Shown piece after piece: positions 22,382 to 31,784 of a DNA stretch of 64,000 nt; position 1 is the first letter of the stretch, and every line of letters starts with the position of its first letter. This DNA is from Escherichia coli (GTDB lineage: Bacteria; Pseudomonadota; Gammaproteobacteria; Enterobacterales; Enterobacteriaceae): the NCBI RefSeq assembly GCF_003334815.1, contig NZ_QOWO01000004.1; one strand, 5' to 3'. The notes below the pieces were generated by a model. It had not been told where the DNA came from and did no database searches. It saw nothing but the letters and a program-made list of their open reading frames with translations. The position numbers were made by a program, and so were the translations under genes.

Positions 22382-25300
22382 GTGAAGTTTTTTGCCCTCT
22401 TCATTTACCGTCCGGTGGCGACGATTTTACTGTCGGTTGCCATTACCCTGTGCGGCATACTGGGCTTCCGTATGCTGCCGGTCGCCCCGCTGCCGCAGGT
22501 CGATTTTCCGGTGATTATGGTCAGCGCCTCGCTGCCCGGTGCGTCACCAGAAACAATGGCGTCTTCCGTTGCCACGCCGCTGGAGCGCTCACTTGGGCGC
22601 ATTGCCGGAGTCAGTGAAATGACCTCCAGCAGTTCCCTCGGCAGCACGCGTATTATTTTGCAGTTTGATTTTGACCGGGATATCAACGGCGCGGCGCGCG
22701 ATGTGCAGGCGGCGATCAACGCTGCACAAAGTTTGCTGCCCAGCGGGATGCCCAGCCGTCCGACCTATCGCAAAGCTAACCCGTCGGATGCGCCAATTAT
22801 GATCCTCACGCTGACATCCGATACTTATTCGCAGGGTGAACTGTACGATTTCGCCTCGACGCAGCTGGCTCCGACGATTTCGCAAATCGACGGTGTTGGT
22901 GATGTCGATGTCGGCGGCAGCTCACTGCCCGCCGTACGCGTCGGGCTGAATCCGCAGGCGCTGTTTAATCAGGGCGTCTCGCTGGACGACGTACGCACTG
23001 CCATCAGCAATGCCAACGTGCGTAAACCGCAGGGGGCGCTGGAAGATGGCACTCACCGCTGGCAGATCCAGACCAATGATGAGCTAAAAACCGCCGCCGA
23101 ATATCAGCCGCTGATTATTCATTACAACAACGGCGGCGCGGTTCGTCTGGGCGATGTGGCGACAGTGACCGACTCTGTACAGGATGTACGTAACGCCGGG
23201 ATGACCAATGCCAAACCGGCTATTTTGCTGATGATCCGCAAGCTGCCGGAAGCCAATATTATCCAGACGGTTGACAGCATCCGGGCAAAATTACCGGAGT
23301 TGCAGGAAACCATTCCGGCGGCGATTGATCTGCAAATTGCTCAGGATCGCTCCCCCACCATTCGCGCCTCGCTGGAAGAAGTCGAGCAAACGCTGATTAT
23401 CTCGGTGGCGCTGGTGATTCTGGTGGTGTTTTTATTCCTGCGCTCGGGTCGCGCAACTATTATTCCCGCCGTTGCGGTGCCGGTTTCGCTGATTGGTACG
23501 TTTGCGGCGATGTACCTGTGCGGTTTCAGTCTCAATAATCTTTCGTTAATGGCGCTCACCATCGCTACTGGTTTCGTGGTGGATGACGCCATCGTGGTGC
23601 TGGAAAACATTGCCCGTCATCTGGAAGCGGGAATGAAACCGTTGCAAGCCGCACTGCAAGGTACTCGCGAAGTCGGTTTTACGGTGCTGTCGATGAGTCT
23701 GTCACTGGTGGCGGTGTTCCTGCCGCTGCTGTTGATGGGCGGATTGCCGGGCCGACTGTTACGCGAATTTGCCGTGACGCTTTCTGTCGCCATTGGTATA
23801 TCGTTGCTGGTTTCTCTGACATTAACGCCAATGATGTGTGGCTGGATGCTGAAAGCCAGCAAGCCGCGCGAGCAAAAGCGACTGCGTGGTTTTGGTCGCA
23901 TGTTGGTAGCCCTGCAACAAGGCTACGGCAAGTCACTGAAATGGGTGCTCAATCATACCCGTCTGGTGGGCGTGGTGCTGCTTGGCACCATTGCGCTGAA
24001 TATCTGGCTGTATATCTCGATCCCGAAAACCTTCTTCCCGGAGCAGGACACTGGCGTGTTGATGGGCGGGATTCAGGCGGATCAGAGTATTTCGTTTCAG
24101 GCGATGCGCGGTAAGTTGCAGGATTTCATGAAAATTATCCGTGACGATCCGGCAGTGGATAATGTCACCGGCTTTACAGGCGGTTCGCGAGTGAACAGCG
24201 GGATGATGTTTATCACCCTCAAGCCACGCGACGAACGCAGCGAAACGGCGCAGCAAATTATCGACCGTCTGCGCGTAAAACTGGCGAAAGAACCGGGGGC
24301 GAATCTGTTCCTGATGGCGGTACAGGATATTCGCGTTGGTGGGCGTCAGTCGAACGCCAGCTACCAGTACACGTTGTTATCCGACGACCTGGCGGCACTG
24401 CGCGAATGGGAGCCGAAAATCCGCAAAAAACTGGCGACGTTGCCGGAACTGGCGGACGTGAACTCCGATCAGCAGGATAACGGCGCGGAGATGAATCTGG
24501 TTTACGACCGCGACACCATGGCACGGCTGGGAATCGACGTACAAGCCGCCAACAGTCTGTTAAATAACGCCTTCGGTCAGCGGCAAATCTCGACCATTTA
24601 CCAGCCGATGAACCAGTATAAAGTGGTGATGGAAGTGGATCCGCGCTATACCCAGGACATCAGTGCGCTGGAAAAAATGTTCGTTATCAATAACGAAGGC
24701 AAAGCGATCCCGCTGTCGTATTTCGCTAAATGGCAACCGGCGAATGCCCCACTATCGGTGAATCATCAGGGATTATCGGCGGCCTCGACCATTTCGTTTA
24801 ACCTGCCGACCGGAAAATCGCTCTCGGACGCCAGTGCGGCGATCGATCGCGCAATGACCCAGCTTGGTGTGCCTTCGACGGTGCGCGGCAGTTTTGCCGG
24901 CACGGCGCAGGTGTTCCAGGAGACGATGAACTCGCAGGTGATCCTGATTATCGCCGCCATCGCCACGGTGTATATCGTGCTGGGTATCCTTTACGAGAGT
25001 TATGTGCACCCGCTGACGATTCTCTCCACCCTGCCCTCGGCGGGTGTTGGAGCGCTGCTGGCGCTGGAGCTGTTCAATGCCCCGTTCAGCCTAATCGCCC
25101 TGATAGGGATCATGCTATTAATCGGCATCGTGAAGAAAAACGCCATTATGATGGTCGATTTTGCGCTTGAAGCCCAACGGCACGGTAACCTGACGCCGCA
25201 GGAAGCTATTTTCCAGGCCTGTCTGCTGCGTTTTCGCCCGATTATGATGACTACCCTGGCGGCGCTGTTTGGCGCGCTGCCGCTGGTGTTGTCGGGCGGT

Positions 25301-29184: not shown

Positions 29185-29517
29185 ATGGCTGGTTGGTTTG
29201 AACTCAGTAAGAGCAGTGATAATCAGTTCCGGTTTGTGCTAAAAGCGGGCAATGGTGAGACTATCCTCACCAGCGAGCTGTATACCTCAAAAGCCTCTGC
29301 GGAAAAGGGCATCGCGTCGGTGCGTAGCAACAGCCCGCAAGAAGAACGCTATGAGAAAAAAACGGCAAGTAACGGCAAATTCTATTTCAATCTGAAAGCC
29401 GCTAATCATCAAATTATCGGCTCCAGCCAGATGTACGCCACCGCGCAATCTCGTGAAACCGGAATTGCCTCCGTTAAAGCCAATGGCACAAGCCAGACGG
29501 TGAAAGACAATACGTAA
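29185..29517 (+). CDS. yegP: UPF0339 protein YegP (two tandem DUF1508 repeats)
   Basis: ORF 29146-29517; start taken at ATG 29185 preceded by AAGGAG; 110 aa with an internal duplication (F.F.LKA.NG...GIASV twice). Confidence 0.88.
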   Translation: MAGWFELSKSSDNQFRFVLKAGNGETILTSELYTSKASAEKGIASVRSNSPQEERYEKKTASNGKFYFNLKAANHQIIGSSQMYATAQSRETGIASVKANGTSQTVKDNT

Positions 29518-29524
29518 TTACGAT

Positions 29525-29558
29525 GCCGGGCGTGGGTTGTTGGCGTCCGGCTTTATAT
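29525..29558 (+). terminator. Rho-independent terminator after yegP
   Basis: Stem GCCGGGCG/CGTCCGGC (one G-U pair), 11-nt loop, followed by TTTATAT. Confidence 0.55.
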
Positions 29559-29770
29559 CCAAATAACGCTTAGTTATTAATAATTAAGAGTAACCGCCGC
29601 CATTAAAATAGTGGGCACTGACGAGCACTCGTTGTGCTTTCTTTGTTTACCATCTCATACTTATCCTCCTGAACATGTTCATGTGCCAAAATATCTTCTA
29701 ATACTTTCGTGACGCTATCCGGTTTATGACATACACTGATGTAAGATTTTTACTTACAGGCGGGCGTAAA

Positions 29771-30022
29771 ATGGCCAGAACGATGACGGTTGATCTCGGC
29801 GATGAGTTGCGTGAATTTATCGAGTCCTTAATTGAATCCGGCGACTATCGCACCCAAAGCGAAGTGATCCGTGAGTCACTGCGATTACTTCGAGAAAAGC
29901 AAGCAGAGTCTCGCCTGCAAGCGTTACGTGACATGCTCGCAGAAGGGTTGAGTAGTGGTGAAGCTCAGCCGTGGGAAAAGGACGCGTTCTTACGGAAGGT
30001 GAAAGCAGGGATAAGGAAATAA
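29771..30022 (+). CDS. parD: ParD-family antitoxin (ribbon-helix-helix/CopG-like)
   Basis: ORF 29726-30022; likely start ATG 29771 (MARTMTVDLGDELREFIESLIESGDYRTQSEVIRESLRLL...), the characteristic ParD N-terminal motif; stop 2 bp from the parE start. Confidence 0.8.
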   Translation: MARTMTVDLGDELREFIESLIESGDYRTQSEVIRESLRLLREKQAESRLQALRDMLAEGLSSGEAQPWEKDAFLRKVKAGIRK

Positions 30023-30023
30023 T

Positions 30024-30320
30024 GTGCGTATTATTAAACTCATGCCAAAAGCCAATGAGGATTTAGAAGGCATCTGGTATTACAGCTATCACCATTTCGG
30101 CGAACCACAAGCCGACAGATATGTGGAACATCTTTCAGACGTTCTCCAGATTCTGAGTAACAATAATATAGGTACGCCCAGACCTGAATTAGGCGAAGGT
30201 ATTTTTGTTCTTCCTTTTGAACGCCACGTCATTTATTTCCTGCAATCACCAGGGGAAATTATCGTCATTCGTATCCTTAACCAAAACCAGGACGCCACCA
30301 GACATTTACACTGGAGCTAA
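30024..30320 (+). CDS. parE: ParE/RelE-superfamily toxin
   Basis: 98 aa from GTG 30024 (RIIKLMPKANEDLEGIWYY...), with the x-R/K-L-x-P-x-A-x-x-D-L-E-x-I-W signature of ParE toxins; AAGGA RBS 5 nt upstream. Confidence 0.8.
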   Translation: MRIIKLMPKANEDLEGIWYYSYHHFGEPQADRYVEHLSDVLQILSNNNIGTPRPELGEGIFVLPFERHVIYFLQSPGEIIVIRILNQNQDATRHLHWS

Positions 30321-30422
30321 ACCCGCCGATTGCGCTACAATGCCCGCCCTTAAAGTGGGGGCACTCCCCTAACCGCTTCATCAGGTGAAGCGGATCTGAC
30401 CTGTCATCAGAACGAGAGAATT

Positions 30423-31784
30423 ATGTTTAAACCGGAACTCCTTTCCCCGGCGGGAACGCTGAAAAATATGCGTTACGCTTTCGCTTATGGCGCAGATGCT
30501 GTTTATGCGGGCCAGCCGCGTTATTCCCTGCGTGTGCGCAACAACGAATTCAACCACGAAAATCTTCAGCTCGGCATCAATGAAGCCCACGCGCTGGGGA
30601 AAAAGTTTTATGTCGTGGTCAACATTGCACCGCACAACGCCAAGCTGAAAACCTTTATCCGTGACCTGAAACCGGTGGTGGAAATGGGGCCGGATGCGCT
30701 GATTATGTCCGATCCAGGGCTGATTATGCTGGTGCGTGAGCACTTCCCTGAAATGCCGATCCACCTTTCGGTGCAGGCTAACGCCGTGAACTGGGCGACG
30801 GTGAAATTCTGGCAGCAAATGGGCCTGACCCGCGTGATCCTCTCTCGCGAGCTGTCGCTGGAAGAGATTGAAGAGATCCGCAATCAGGTGCCGGATATGG
30901 AGATCGAGATCTTCGTTCACGGCGCGCTGTGCATGGCCTACTCCGGTCGCTGCCTGCTCTCTGGCTATATCAACAAGCGCGACCCGAACCAGGGCACCTG
31001 CACCAACGCCTGCCGCTGGGAGTACAACGTCCAGGAAGGGAAAGAAGATGATGTTGGCAACATCGTACACAAGTACGAGCCGATTCCGGTGCAAAATGTT
31101 GAGCCGACGCTGGGTATCGGCGCACCAACCGACAAAGTGTTTATGATCGAAGAGGCCCAGCGTCCGGGCGAGTATATGACCGCGTTTGAAGATGAGCACG
31201 GCACTTACATCATGAACTCGAAAGATCTGCGCGCCATCGCCCATGTAGAACGCCTGACCAAAATGGGCGTGCATTCGCTGAAAGTCGAAGGTCGTACCAA
31301 ATCTTTCTACTATTGTGCACGCACCGCACAGGTTTACCGCAAAGCTATCGATGACGCCGCTGCGGGAAAACCGTTCGATACCAGCCTGCTGGAAACTCTG
31401 GAAGGTCTGGCGCATCGTGGCTATACCGAAGGTTTCCTGCGTCGTCATACTCACGACGATTATCAGAACTACGAATACGGTTATTCAGTTTCTGACCGCC
31501 AGCAGTTTGTTGGTGAGTTTACCGGTGAGCGCAAGGGGGACCTCGCGGCGGTAGCGGTGAAAAATAAATTCTCCGTTGGCGACAGCCTTGAGCTGATGAC
31601 GCCGCAAGGCAACATTAATTTTACCCTTGAGCACATGGAAAACGCCAAAGGCGAAGCTATGCCGATAGCACCAGGCGATGGTTATACTGTGTGGCTCCCG
31701 GTCCCGCAGGATCTTGAGCTCAATTACGCGCTGCTGATGCGTAATTTCTCCGGGGAAACCACGCGTAATCCCCACGGTAAGTGA
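30423..31784 (+). CDS. yegQ: U32-family peptidase-like protein YegQ
   Basis: 453-aa ORF starting MFKPELLSPAGTLKNMRYAFAYGADAVYAGQPRYSLR, U32 family. Confidence 0.92.
   Translation: MFKPELLSPAGTLKNMRYAFAYGADAVYAGQPRYSLRVRNNEFNHENLQLGINEAHALGKKFYVVVNIAPHNAKLKTFIRDLKPVVEMGPDALIMSDPGLIMLVREHFPEMPIHLSVQANAVNWATVKFWQQMGLTRVILSRELSLEEIEEIRNQVPDMEIEIFVHGALCMAYSGRCLLSGYINKRDPNQGTCTNACRWEYNVQEGKEDDVGNIVHKYEPIPVQNVEPTLGIGAPTDKVFMIEEAQRPGEYMTAFEDEHGTYIMNSKDLRAIAHVERLTKMGVHSLKVEGRTKSFYYCARTAQVYRKAIDDAAAGKPFDTSLLETLEGLAHRGYTEGFLRRHTHDDYQNYEYGYSVSDRQQFVGEFTGERKGDLAAVAVKNKFSVGDSLELMTPQGNINFTLEHMENAKGEAMPIAPGDGYTVWLPVPQDLELNYALLMRNFSGETTRNPHGK

Follow-up and report, generated by a model that had tools for sequence, protein, structure and literature searches.

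The spacer between the core genes yegP and yegQ of this Escherichia coli genome very probably holds an old insertion, positions 29552-30331 of the window (the whole stretch of 64,000 nucleotides that was analysed), with parDE, a canonical toxin-antitoxin operon of type II, as its content (Table 1). RefSeq has already annotated the pair automatically in about 1800 complete genomes. Literature searches for yegP/yegQ in combination with ParE or toxin-antitoxin, or for the RefSeq protein accessions, gave nothing specific to the locus, and no paper characterising it was found.

Table 1. Features of the yegP-yegQ region, in positions of the window
Feature	Position	Strand	Basis
yegP (YegP family, DUF1508), upstream core gene	29185..29517	+	annotated in identical RefSeq loci; ORF
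yegP terminator hairpin, GCCGGGCG...CGTCCGGC	29525..29551	+	sequence reading; partly called terminator-like
Inserted segment, 780 bp	29552..30331	+	alignment of filled and empty alleles; outgroup spacers
AT-rich left arm	29552..29613	+	BLAST breakpoints at 29613; alignment
Left repeat copy, CCGCCATTAAAATAGTGGGCACT	29597..29619	+	inside the insert, straddling the end of the left arm
Terminator-like hairpin GAGCAC-TCGTT-GTGCTT, then T-rich tail	29623..29649	+	terminator scan
Putative parDE promoter, GTGACG, 17 bp, TACACT	29709..29737	+	sequence reading; kept in the Pseudocitrobacter copy
Palindrome TGTAAG-ATTTTTA-CTTACA	29740..29758	+	alignment with relatives
parD, antitoxin, 83 aa	29771..30022	+	PF03693, TIGR02606 and PrpA (7ycs_D) matches
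parE, toxin, 98 aa, GTG start	30024..30320	+	PF05016 and PrpT (7ycs_A) matches
Right arm: last 19 bp of parE and 11 bp (ACATTTACACTGGAGCTAA-ACCCGCCGATT)	30302..30331	+	kept in all non-empty alleles
-10 box of the yegQ (trhP) promoter, TACAAT, core DNA	30336..30341	+	73 of 80 Enterobacteriaceae loci; promoter scan of the empty allele
yegQ 5' leader, conserved	30342..30422	+	alignment and RNAalifold
Right repeat copy, CCGCCCTTAAAGTGGGGGCACT	30344..30365	+	core DNA, present in K-12 and outgroups
yegQ/trhP (prephenate-dependent tRNA U34 hydroxylase), downstream core gene	30423..31784	+	RefSeq annotation; ORF

Filled and empty alleles of the yegP-yegQ spacer

Alignment with the K-12-type empty site placed the junctions between 29551 and 29552 and between 30331 and 30332, and it confirmed the preliminary description in that K-12 has no parDE at this position. 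The K-12 sequence is identical up to 29551, which makes the yegP terminator hairpin the last DNA on the left side that both alleles have in common. In the filled allele the 780-bp insert stands in place of 21-22 bp (GCTTTACC-AGAGCCCCCCACA), which in the empty allele provide the yegQ promoter (TTTACC-N17-TACAAT) with its -35 box and the greater part of its spacer. A spacer of 147-159 bp, arranged as hairpin-GCTTTACC-N17-TACAAT, was seen in the 12 outgroup loci that have yegP (E. albertii, Kluyvera, Citrobacter, Enterobacter, Lelliottia and others; the genome scan returned no E. fergusonii, E. marmotae or E. ruysiae). Since every outgroup with yegP has this K-12-type spacer, the empty site is ancestral, and an insertion of parDE relative to it is supported by the comparison. 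The opposite direction, with parDE ancestral at the site and the K-12-type spacer a deletion scar, was rejected as extremely improbable. It could draw on the TTTACC-AGAGC of K-12, which loosely resembles the parE 3' end (TTTACACTGGAGC), and on the parE scraps that do occur in other alleles; however, TTTACC is the -35 box of the yegQ promoter, the TTTAC(C/T)-N17-TACAAT spacer is found in E. albertii and many genera whether yegP is present or not (with N17/18 in 73 of 80 Enterobacteriaceae loci), and the HLHW C-terminus of ParE is the family's own, as the plasmid copies show.

For 29552-30331, neither a mobility gene nor a target-site duplication was detected. The only ORFs of at least 60 aa are parD and parE, no integrase or transposase is encoded, and the RefSeq annotation shows nothing else. 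The one feature noted is a possible microhomology of 3-5 bp at GCG(C/T)T. The segment does not have the layout of an integron cassette, as native promoter DNA follows the parE stop after a mere 11 bp, and no inverted repeat of the kind that forms an attC site (57-141 bp) was found there.

The cassette was described preliminarily as a strain-specific islet, a view that has to be abandoned: 1844 of 5426 complete E. coli genomes (34%) carry it at this spot, and between lineages (the divergent E. coli TUM1586 and ST648) it is 98% identical, compared with 98.6% for the flanking yegQ. From this frequency and a divergence like that of the core gene, the cassette is judged a common and old accessory allele. 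The same spacer can hold three other, mutually exclusive cargos, giving four non-empty alleles, and decay of parDE is visible in other alleles as scraps of parE and parD and as IS1 insertions. The left arm also occurs in the allele with a 5.2-kb island and in the remnant allele of E. coli SCPM-O-B-8794, with a conservation of 88-90% that is below that of the cassette, and in the E. coli search segment 29590-29735 was found nowhere but at this locus. A composite ancestor with both the 5.2-kb island and parDE was considered and discarded, as a chimeric query found 2143 of the 5426 genomes with one of its halves and no genome with both; a past co-occurrence is suggested by the remnant allele of SCPM-O-B-8794 (locus L011) only. 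All E. coli alternative cargos keep the same two boundaries together with a scrap of the parE 3' end, and the right junction is the same in Escherichia and in a Pseudocitrobacter genome, where parDE is joined to yegQ with GATT directly followed by GCGCTACAAT. Once inserted, the cassette has probably been inherited and swapped by homologous recombination as one of several spacer alleles.

The ParD/ParE pair and its relatives

The two small ORFs had been read as a ribbon-helix-helix ParD-like antitoxin and a toxin of the ParE/RelE fold, and profile and structure-database matches agree with this. ParD matched Pfam PF03693 (ParD_antitoxin) with 4.7e-19 (residues 1-78 on model positions 1-76 of 81) and TIGR02606 with 88.4 bits (cut-off 46.2). 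A match of its residues 6-42 to RHH_1 (PF01402) at 0.0034 identified the ribbon-helix-helix part, and weak matches to the ribbon-helix-helix proteins NikR and CdrS were also seen in the profile search. ParE matched PF05016 (ParE_toxin) with 2e-13 over model positions 1-88 of 89, and no NCBIfam model matched it. Among solved structures in the PDB, the best matches were PrpA (7ycs_D, 1.9e-27) for ParD and PrpT (7ycs_A, 2.3e-12) for ParE; further relatives of ParE are ParE1 of M. tuberculosis (8c24_A), ParE1 of Caulobacter (3kxe_A) and ParE2 of V. cholerae (7r5a_A). The gene order is that of a type II system, with the small antitoxin gene first and the toxin gene tightly coupled behind it. The parD stop codon TAA (30020-30022) is separated from the parE GTG at 30024 by one base, and thus the tight spacing noted before holds, with a gap of one base instead of the two given. 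In the RefSeq annotation (PGAP), parD starts at 29726 and encodes a 98-aa form, which is probably too long; we favour the start at 29771, because the PF03693 match begins at residue 1 and because of a start-codon argument from the alignments. On these matches, the pair is classified as an ordinary canonical ParD (ribbon-helix-helix)/ParE type II toxin-antitoxin module with predicted toxin activity. The anti-phage defence models of PADLOC matched neither ParD and ParE nor the four proteins of the alternative island.

As the parDE promoter is too weak to pass a consensus promoter scan, which did not report it, we infer it from reading of the sequence. The terminator-like hairpin at 29623-29649 could insulate parDE against upstream transcription. 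Between promoter and parD, the palindrome retains GTAAG-N9-CTTAC in the plasmid and Pseudocitrobacter relatives and is a probable, predicted ParD operator. From the literature on the ParDE family, gyrase poisoning is expected of ParE, and neutralisation of the toxin and operator binding of ParD. By analogy with the family, a ribbon-helix-helix dimer of ParD would bind the palindrome at 29740-29758 and repress the operon, the C-terminal part of ParD would wrap and neutralise ParE, and free ParE would poison DNA gyrase.

Comparison with the Pseudocitrobacter copy gave pN values of 0.05 for parD and 0.12 for parE at a pS of about 0.76, which points to long-term purifying selection on both genes. 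Within E. coli, parD shows no non-synonymous and 4 synonymous differences, and parE has a dN/dS of 0.5-0.65, calculated from only 6-7 differences. These values bear on the question whether the cassette might be a domesticated or attenuated remnant, in which intact ORFs encode a non-toxic ParE and the module persists by drift or through a regulatory role of ParD. The decay of parDE in other alleles implies that the module is dispensable and might be attenuated, and besides the parE dN/dS, attenuation would fit the related IncF plasmid copies, in which a parE with two in-frame TAG codons lies beside an intact parD, as well as a non-toxic P. aeruginosa ParE1 mentioned in the paper on V. cholerae ParE2 (bioRxiv 10.1101/2025.07.24.666505). 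Nevertheless, we regard an attenuated remnant as unlikely, given the selection on both genes and the full-length parD and parE in the divergent lineages examined.

Outside the chromosomal locus, the nearest relatives at the DNA level are parDE pairs of IncF-type plasmids from Escherichia, Klebsiella, Salmonella and Pantoea. Altogether 881 plasmids match from about 29731 to about 30328 at 60-80% nucleotide identity. The IncF-type copies show 68-71% nucleotide identity over a stretch that begins about 40 bp before parD and ends shortly after the parE stop codon, with the same GTAAG-N9-CTTAC palindrome, GTG start of parE and HLHW C-terminus, and their ParE is 61-69% identical in protein sequence; many IncF plasmids of E. 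coli have a parE pseudogene that contains two TAG codons. They differ in lacking the left arm, the left repeat and the yegQ promoter, and in their arrangement of parDE, a tyrosine recombinase and Rep3 (RepFIB-type), a plasmid-stability context unlike that of the chromosomal locus. As these nearest relatives lie beside a RepFIB replicon and a resolvase on IncF-type plasmids, a plasmid origin of the module is likely.

Other known systems are more distant. 7YCS is the PrpT/PrpA pair (PMC13048266), which is encoded on a megaplasmid of Pseudoalteromonas rubra, and the likeness comprises a ribbon-helix-helix antitoxin encoded first, a ParE-fold toxin of about 98 aa and near-full-length matches; it differs in being plasmid-borne in a distant genus, and the comparison is one of profile and sequence matches. 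Classical ParDE systems (RK2; Caulobacter ParDE1, 3KXE; V. cholerae ParDE2, 7R5A; M. tuberculosis ParDE1, 8C24) belong to the same Pfam families, with matches of 5.8e-08 to 6.8e-07 for ParE and 3e-12 to 9e-11 for ParD, but they are distant in sequence, and the potency of ParE toxins varies widely. PrpA reportedly has a role in replication control, of which the window shows no sign. ParDE-I of IncI/IncF resistance plasmids, for which plasmid stability, SOS induction and antibiotic tolerance have been shown experimentally (Kamruzzaman and Iredell 2019, PMC6614396), is also a toxin-antitoxin pair of Enterobacteriaceae with a toxin of the ParE superfamily. Its antitoxin is described as of the COG3905 type, and its identity to RK2/Caulobacter ParE as no more than about 15%; compared by description, it probably represents a different subfamily.

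Two look-alike repeats around the operon

The best local alignment between the two sides of the operon pairs 29597-29619 (CCGCCATTAAAATAGTGGGCACT) with 30344-30365 (CCGCCCTTAAAGTGGGGGCACT), with 19 of 23 positions identical and one gap. Its score of 25 compares with 15.0 +/- 2.2 in dinucleotide shuffles, 0.2% of which reach 25, and was not attained by any of some 2900 segments drawn at random from the window; a second scoring scheme gave p = 0.008 for shuffles and p = 0.02 for random segments. The similarity is real yet modestly above chance, with p about 0.002-0.02. A single long colinear repeat (parE stop, flank and leader start, with a 20-bp gap) was tried and does not beat the simple 23-bp match.

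The left copy is internal to the insert, 45 bp from its left end. The right copy is found 12 bp beyond the insert, in DNA that K-12 also has, and comprises the GC-rich stretch that directly follows the -10 box (discriminator, CCCGCCC) and the beginning of the leader with the 5' half and the loop of hairpin P1. TACAAT followed by (G/T)CCCGCCC is present upstream of yegQ in 79 of 80 Enterobacteriaceae loci, with insert or without, and is identical in K-12. The leader contains the hairpins P1 (30357-30369) and P2 (30373-30393), the latter with compensatory changes at 6 pairs according to alignment and RNAalifold, and an invariant TCTGACCTGTCATCAGAACGAGA at 30395-30417; an Rfam search of 29400-30500 returned nothing below E = 0.78, and the leader matches no family. 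We read the right copy as the conserved beginning of the yegQ transcript, within promoter and leader. The preliminary description was right that similar short sequences flank the pair, but they do not bracket its junctions, with one copy inside the insert and the other in core DNA.

It had further been proposed that these imperfect direct repeats are attL/attR-like junctions, or the scar of a site-specific recombination by which an islet was inserted. The two 23-mers are indeed more alike than chance predicts and flank both genes in direct orientation, and the island-allele breakpoint at 29613 falls within the left copy. We nevertheless consider this very improbable, as neither copy lies at the junctions defined by the empty site and the insert is devoid of a recombinase gene. 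Native promoter DNA makes up both the right copy and the 12 bp that precede it (GCGCTACAATGC), with the same sequence in K-12 and outgroups, and with junctions of this type the DNA left of the left copy should be native promoter as well, for which no similarity was found (p = 0.67-0.73). An excised state that keeps the left arm alone was also not observed, with five states accounting for about 5400-5420 of 5424 matching genomes. The left arm as a decayed native promoter, left by a long target duplication, was excluded in the same comparison; it has no similarity to -35 box, spacer and -10 box (p = 0.67 in global and 0.73 in local alignment).

For the left copy itself, a fossil may be envisaged, namely the start of a yegQ leader. 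The insert, or a previous occupant of the site, would have been put together in the yegQ upstream region of another lineage or have come from there, and would have brought the leader start with it or duplicated it. It matches the yegQ leader starts of many genera, best that of Raoultella (20 of 24 positions, score 27, p about 0.0003 before correction for the best of 80 loci), with which it also has a GGGCAC...GTGCTT stem in common. In addition, GAGTAACCGCCGCCATT at 29588-29604 resembles the right arm sequence GAGCTAAACCCGCCGATT (p = 0.008), and the Pseudocitrobacter parDE, which meets yegQ at the right junction known from E. coli, means that a linkage of parDE and yegQ exists outside Escherichia. 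This origin of the left copy, to which we give a small though not negligible chance, is countered by the shortness of the match, by the lack of any gain in score when the alignment is extended to the stem, by flanks of the left copy that are unrelated to any promoter or leader, and by the Pseudocitrobacter copy, which has no such left element. Further copies of the left segment were not detected in E. coli, plasmids or the 80 outgroup loci. The parDE module that the window has in common with the plasmid and Pseudocitrobacter relatives begins only after the left copy, at about 29706-29733.

The yegQ (trhP) promoter and the meaning of the site

With insertion at the junctions given by the empty site, the -35 box and the spacer of the yegQ promoter were lost, and the -10 box, the GC-rich stretch and the leader remained intact. 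In line with this, a promoter scan found TTTACC-17-TACAAT in the empty allele and no site on the + strand of the filled allele. A terminator scan detected no terminator-like site between parE and yegQ. In parDE-positive strains, transcription of yegQ probably relies on a hybrid promoter of reduced strength, on read-through from the parDE promoter, or on both.

A comparable setting is known from ccdO157 (folA-apaH) and mazEF (relA-mazG), where a small module occupies a short gap between two core genes in part of the species, and where the sites accept other cargos, show decay variants and have no explained insertion mechanism (PMC7167474). At the yegQ site, in contrast, half of a core promoter was removed, the non-empty alleles keep the same two boundaries, and the right junction recurs in a second genus. 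That the yegP/baeR-yegQ spacer is a fixed-boundary exchange site, with parDE fused to the trhP -10 box in a targeted or recurrent event, appears to us quite unlikely. If it were true, a tRNA-modification enzyme would be under toxin-antitoxin-autoregulated transcription, and a fusion that was targeted or recurrent, instead of one old accident spread by recombination, would offer a rare handle on the movement of chromosomal toxin-antitoxin modules.

The toxin-antitoxin pair itself is a standard ParDE module and of little import. As for the flanking look-alikes, the tempting att reading is corrected by the finding that one of them corresponds to the predicted conserved transcript start of the downstream gene. 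How toxin-antitoxin modules integrate into chromosomes remained unknown in a review of 2020 (PMC7167474), and the well-defined pair of filled and empty alleles is therefore a reasonable test case. The site is a clean case in which a toxin-antitoxin module of the chromosome came to lie within the promoter of a core gene, and the loss of the trhP/yegQ -35 box may couple this gene to the toxin-antitoxin promoter.

Gene pair and yegQ promoter

In the window, two small ORFs lie between baeS-baeR-yegP and yegQ (trhP, a tRNA-modification gene), and a single base separates the parD stop from the parE GTG. ParD was matched over its full length by PF03693 (4.7e-19), by TIGR02606 at 88.4 bits (cut-off 46.2) and weakly by the ribbon-helix-helix profile RHH_1, and ParE was matched by PF05016 (2e-13, model positions 1-88 of 89) and by none of the NCBIfam models. 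The top solved-structure match of both proteins was 7YCS (ParD 1.9e-27, ParE 2.3e-12), the PrpT/PrpA of Pseudoalteromonas rubra (PMC13048266), followed by ParDE pairs of M. tuberculosis, Caulobacter and V. cholerae. Therefore, from the profile and structure matches, the ParD/ParE cassette named in the preliminary description, which had proposed such a profile search, was correctly identified, and the pair is a standard ParDE-family module. RefSeq (NCBI PGAP) starts ParD at 29726 (98 aa). Four lines of evidence point to ATG 29771 (83 aa): homologues, the Pfam alignment, where the Shine-Dalgarno sequence sits in plasmid copies, and SCU-316, a strain whose 1-bp insertion 'frameshifts' the N-terminal extension only. 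The extension (29726-29770) overlaps the putative operator palindrome.

A scan of a genome collection with YegQ gave 80 species loci, each with 3.5 kb of flank. Upstream of yegQ, ParD was found at none of the 80, and a ParE fragment at one, a record named E. coli SCPM-O-B-8794. All other loci with intact yegP (E. albertii, Kluyvera, Citrobacter, Enterobacter, Lelliottia and two metagenome-assembled genomes) have a K-12-type spacer of 147-159 bp, made up of the terminator hairpin, GC-TTTACC, a variable 17-bp spacer, TACAAT, and GCCCGCCCTTAAAGTGGGGGCACTCCCC with the rest of the leader; genera lacking yegP carry the same TTTAC(C/T)-N17-TACAAT immediately 3' of baeR. The complete motif is present in 73/80 loci, and TACAAT is followed by (G/T)CCCGCCC in 79/80. 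As spacer and motif extend across the outgroup loci, the empty site is ancestral, and its contents are the sigma-70 promoter of yegQ. A promoter scan picked up TTTACC-17-TACAAT in a K-12-type locus and nothing on the + strand of the filled window. By alignment, the window equals the empty site on the left as far as 29551, where the yegP terminator stem ends, and on the right from 30332 (GCGCTACAAT...) onward, with a 780-bp insert in place of 21-22 bp comprising the -35 box and spacer of the yegQ promoter. The yegP-yegQ alignment that had been suggested thus defines the empty site and the junctions 29551|29552 and 30331|30332, and together with the outgroup loci it supports insertion of a toxin-antitoxin pair that K-12 lacks.

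The yegQ 5' leader is near-invariant across Enterobacteriaceae and comprises a GC-rich stretch 3' of the -10 box, hairpins P1 and P2, the latter with compensatory changes at 6 pairs, and an invariant TCTGACCTGTCATCAGAACGAGA immediately 5' of the start codon. No Rfam family matched it, and it possibly acts in cis as a regulatory leader not described so far. In some strains a P2-like prophage (ogrK, late control D, tail genes) lies directly downstream of yegQ, so that both sides of yegQ are variable.

Coordinates of features in the window and in compared loci
Feature	Locus	Coordinates	Remark
Insert	window	29552-30331	
Left copy of 23-mer	window	29597-29619	
Terminator-like hairpin, T-rich tail	window	29623-29649	
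Candidate parDE promoter	window	29709-29737	GTGACG-17-TACACT
Conserved palindrome	window	29740-29758	upstream of parD
parD	window	29771-30022	83 aa, MARTMTVDLG...; preferred start; stop 30020-30022
parE	window	30024-30320	GTG start, 98 aa
yegQ leader	window	30342-30422	
Right copy of 23-mer	window	30344-30365	
Hairpin P2	window	30373-30393	
5.2-kb island	L006 (E. coli strain 9)	19219-24545	four genes on opposite strand
HEAT-repeat allele	L105 (E. coli H32)	2370-3949	
HEAT-repeat allele	L004 (E. coli NDM2)	2532-2980	
P2-like prophage	L004	4754-6198	downstream of yegQ
P2-like prophage	L096	8817-12571	downstream of yegQ
IS1 inside parE	L095 (GCA_013360015.1)	2730-2855	
IS1 upstream of parD	L098 (QEC11-421)	791-1488	
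Plasmid parDE	L093 (NZ_CP113494.1)	1500-2100	E. coli IncF plasmid
Pseudocitrobacter parDE	L094 (Logan ERR13577275)	2130-2900	between baeR and yegQ, no yegP

Two similar 23-mers

The preliminary description had the pair flanked by imperfect direct repeats, read as insertion junctions or a recombination scar. The look-alike 23-mers are real: their best local alignment has 19/23 identical positions and one gap, and scores 25. Dinucleotide shuffles gave 15.0 +/- 2.2, and a score of 25 was reached by 0.2% of them and by none of the random window segments; alternative gap scoring gave p = 0.008 against shuffles and 0.02 against random segments. The similarity is a little better than chance. The bracketing did not hold, with the right copy 12 bp rightward of the junction and outside the insert, and the left copy 45 bp within it. 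The right copy combines the GC-rich discriminator 3' of the -10 box with the hairpin that opens the yegQ leader; it is the same in K-12 and is conserved across the family. Homology to parDE modules elsewhere does not begin until about 29706-29733, past the left copy. If the 23-mers were attL and attR, the left flank of the left copy should equal the native promoter, to which it shows no similarity (p = 0.67-0.73), and there is no recombinase gene within the insert. Therefore, from the repeat positions, the dissimilar flank, the lack of a recombinase and the late start of homology, the junction or att reading was rejected, the junctions being those of the alignment.

The left copy resembles yegQ leader starts in general, best that of Raoultella (20/24 bases, p about 0.0003 uncorrected for choice of the best among 80 loci), and a GGGCAC...GTGCTT stem is common to its region and the Raoultella leader. 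An origin as a fossil leader start is rather unlikely, and no donor was found. Just 3' of the left copy, the insert has a terminator-like hairpin and T-rich tail, and SCU-316 has one partly compensatory change in an overlapping palindrome (ACGAG-CA-CTCGT).

Frequency and alleles at the site

When 1401 bp from yegP to the yegQ start were compared with 5426 complete E. coli genomes, the full cassette was found in 1844, between yegP and yegQ in every case, and the K-12-type junction in 3182. The cassette is indeed absent from K-12, as the preliminary description had it, and is a common allele rather than the strain-specific islet supposed there. RefSeq labels the genes type II ParD antitoxin and RelE/ParE toxin, and in public genomes the cassette is already annotated by automated pipelines; a literature search found no paper characterising it or naming this locus. 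Identities between the divergent E. coli strain TUM1586 and the window are 98.4% for parD, 98.0% for parE, 98.6% for the yegQ start and 95.1% for baeR/yegP, and the ST648 copy is as close to the window, the pattern of a long-resident allele.

The yegP-yegQ site is a hotspot whose boundaries are fixed and whose contents vary between five states: empty, parDE and three more. In 298 genomes, CFT073, Nissle 1917 and ATCC 25922 among them, it holds a 5.2-kb island that encodes PcfJ-domain, DUF1266, DUF4034 and hypothetical products, has no PADLOC defence matches and was never found in the same genome as parDE. The HEAT-repeat state (about 75-97 genomes, some with IS1) has a 466-aa HEAT-repeat gene, then a truncated, divergent parD of 53 aa (about 78% nucleotide identity to that of the window) and a parE 3' scrap; in NDM2 this allele is truncated by IS1 and yegP is deleted. 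The remnant allele of SCPM-O-B-8794 has the left arm (29552-29613 in the window), about 50 bp from the left end of the island, and a parE pseudogene reduced to its 3' two-thirds. All non-empty states begin with TTTAT straight after the yegP hairpin and end with the parE 3' scrap and CCCGCCGATT immediately before GCGCTACAAT. The simplest reading would be a single original insertion with parDE at its right end, internal parts of which were later replaced or deleted, the alleles being shuffled between lineages via homologous recombination in flanking core genes. IS1 was also seen inside parE in one assembly and, independently, in the segment upstream of parD in strain QEC11-421.

Relatives and working model

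The left segment 29590-29735 occurs in E. coli at this locus only and on no plasmid. Relatives of the coding module were found in 881 plasmid records at 68-71% nucleotide identity, typically beside a tyrosine recombinase and a Rep3/RepFIB initiator on IncF-type plasmids, and these share with the window a GTAAG-N9-CTTAC palindrome upstream of parD, the parE GTG start and an HLHW C-terminus. On such sequence likeness, a plasmid origin of the module is plausible. Intact plasmid versions occur in Klebsiella, Salmonella and Pantoea; NZ_CP113494.1 has, beside its tyrosine recombinase and RepFIB, an apparently intact parD and an unannotated parE with two in-frame TAG codons (TGG to TAG, CAG to TAG), a form also present in many of 461 Escherichia plasmid matches.

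Outside E. coli, the nearest relative lies in a Pseudocitrobacter assembly (ParE 80% identical). Its right junction is that of E. coli (...TAA-7 nt-GATT|GCGCTACAAT), the leader 3' of it is purely Pseudocitrobacter-type, and both Pseudocitrobacter reference loci have the empty promoter. The proportions of differing synonymous (pS) and non-synonymous (pN) sites between the window and this locus were 0.76 (saturated) and 0.05 for parD, 0.77 (saturated) and 0.12 for parE, 0.50 and 0.04 for yegQ, and 0.60 and 0.06 for baeR, so parD and parE have been under long-standing purifying selection. Either the fusion of parDE to the yegQ promoter dates far back, or it arose or was passed on more than a single time.

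The candidate parDE promoter is kept in Pseudocitrobacter and fails the consensus scan. By analogy with the ParDE systems of RK2, Caulobacter and V. cholerae, ParD dimers would bind the conserved palindrome and repress this weak promoter, ParD would neutralise ParE, and free ParE would poison gyrase. Given the decay seen in other alleles of the site and the weak toxicity of some ParE proteins, an attenuated module was considered, and is quite improbable. No terminator-like site was found between parE and yegQ. In parDE-positive strains, yegQ would depend on a weakened hybrid promoter, on parDE read-through, or on both. The cassette behaves like ccdO157 and mazEF, chromosomal toxin-antitoxin insertions in E. 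coli spacers, whose integration mode has been described as unknown (PMC7167474). Its wider value is limited to the disrupted trhP promoter, the multi-allele site with fixed boundaries and the junction common to two genera.
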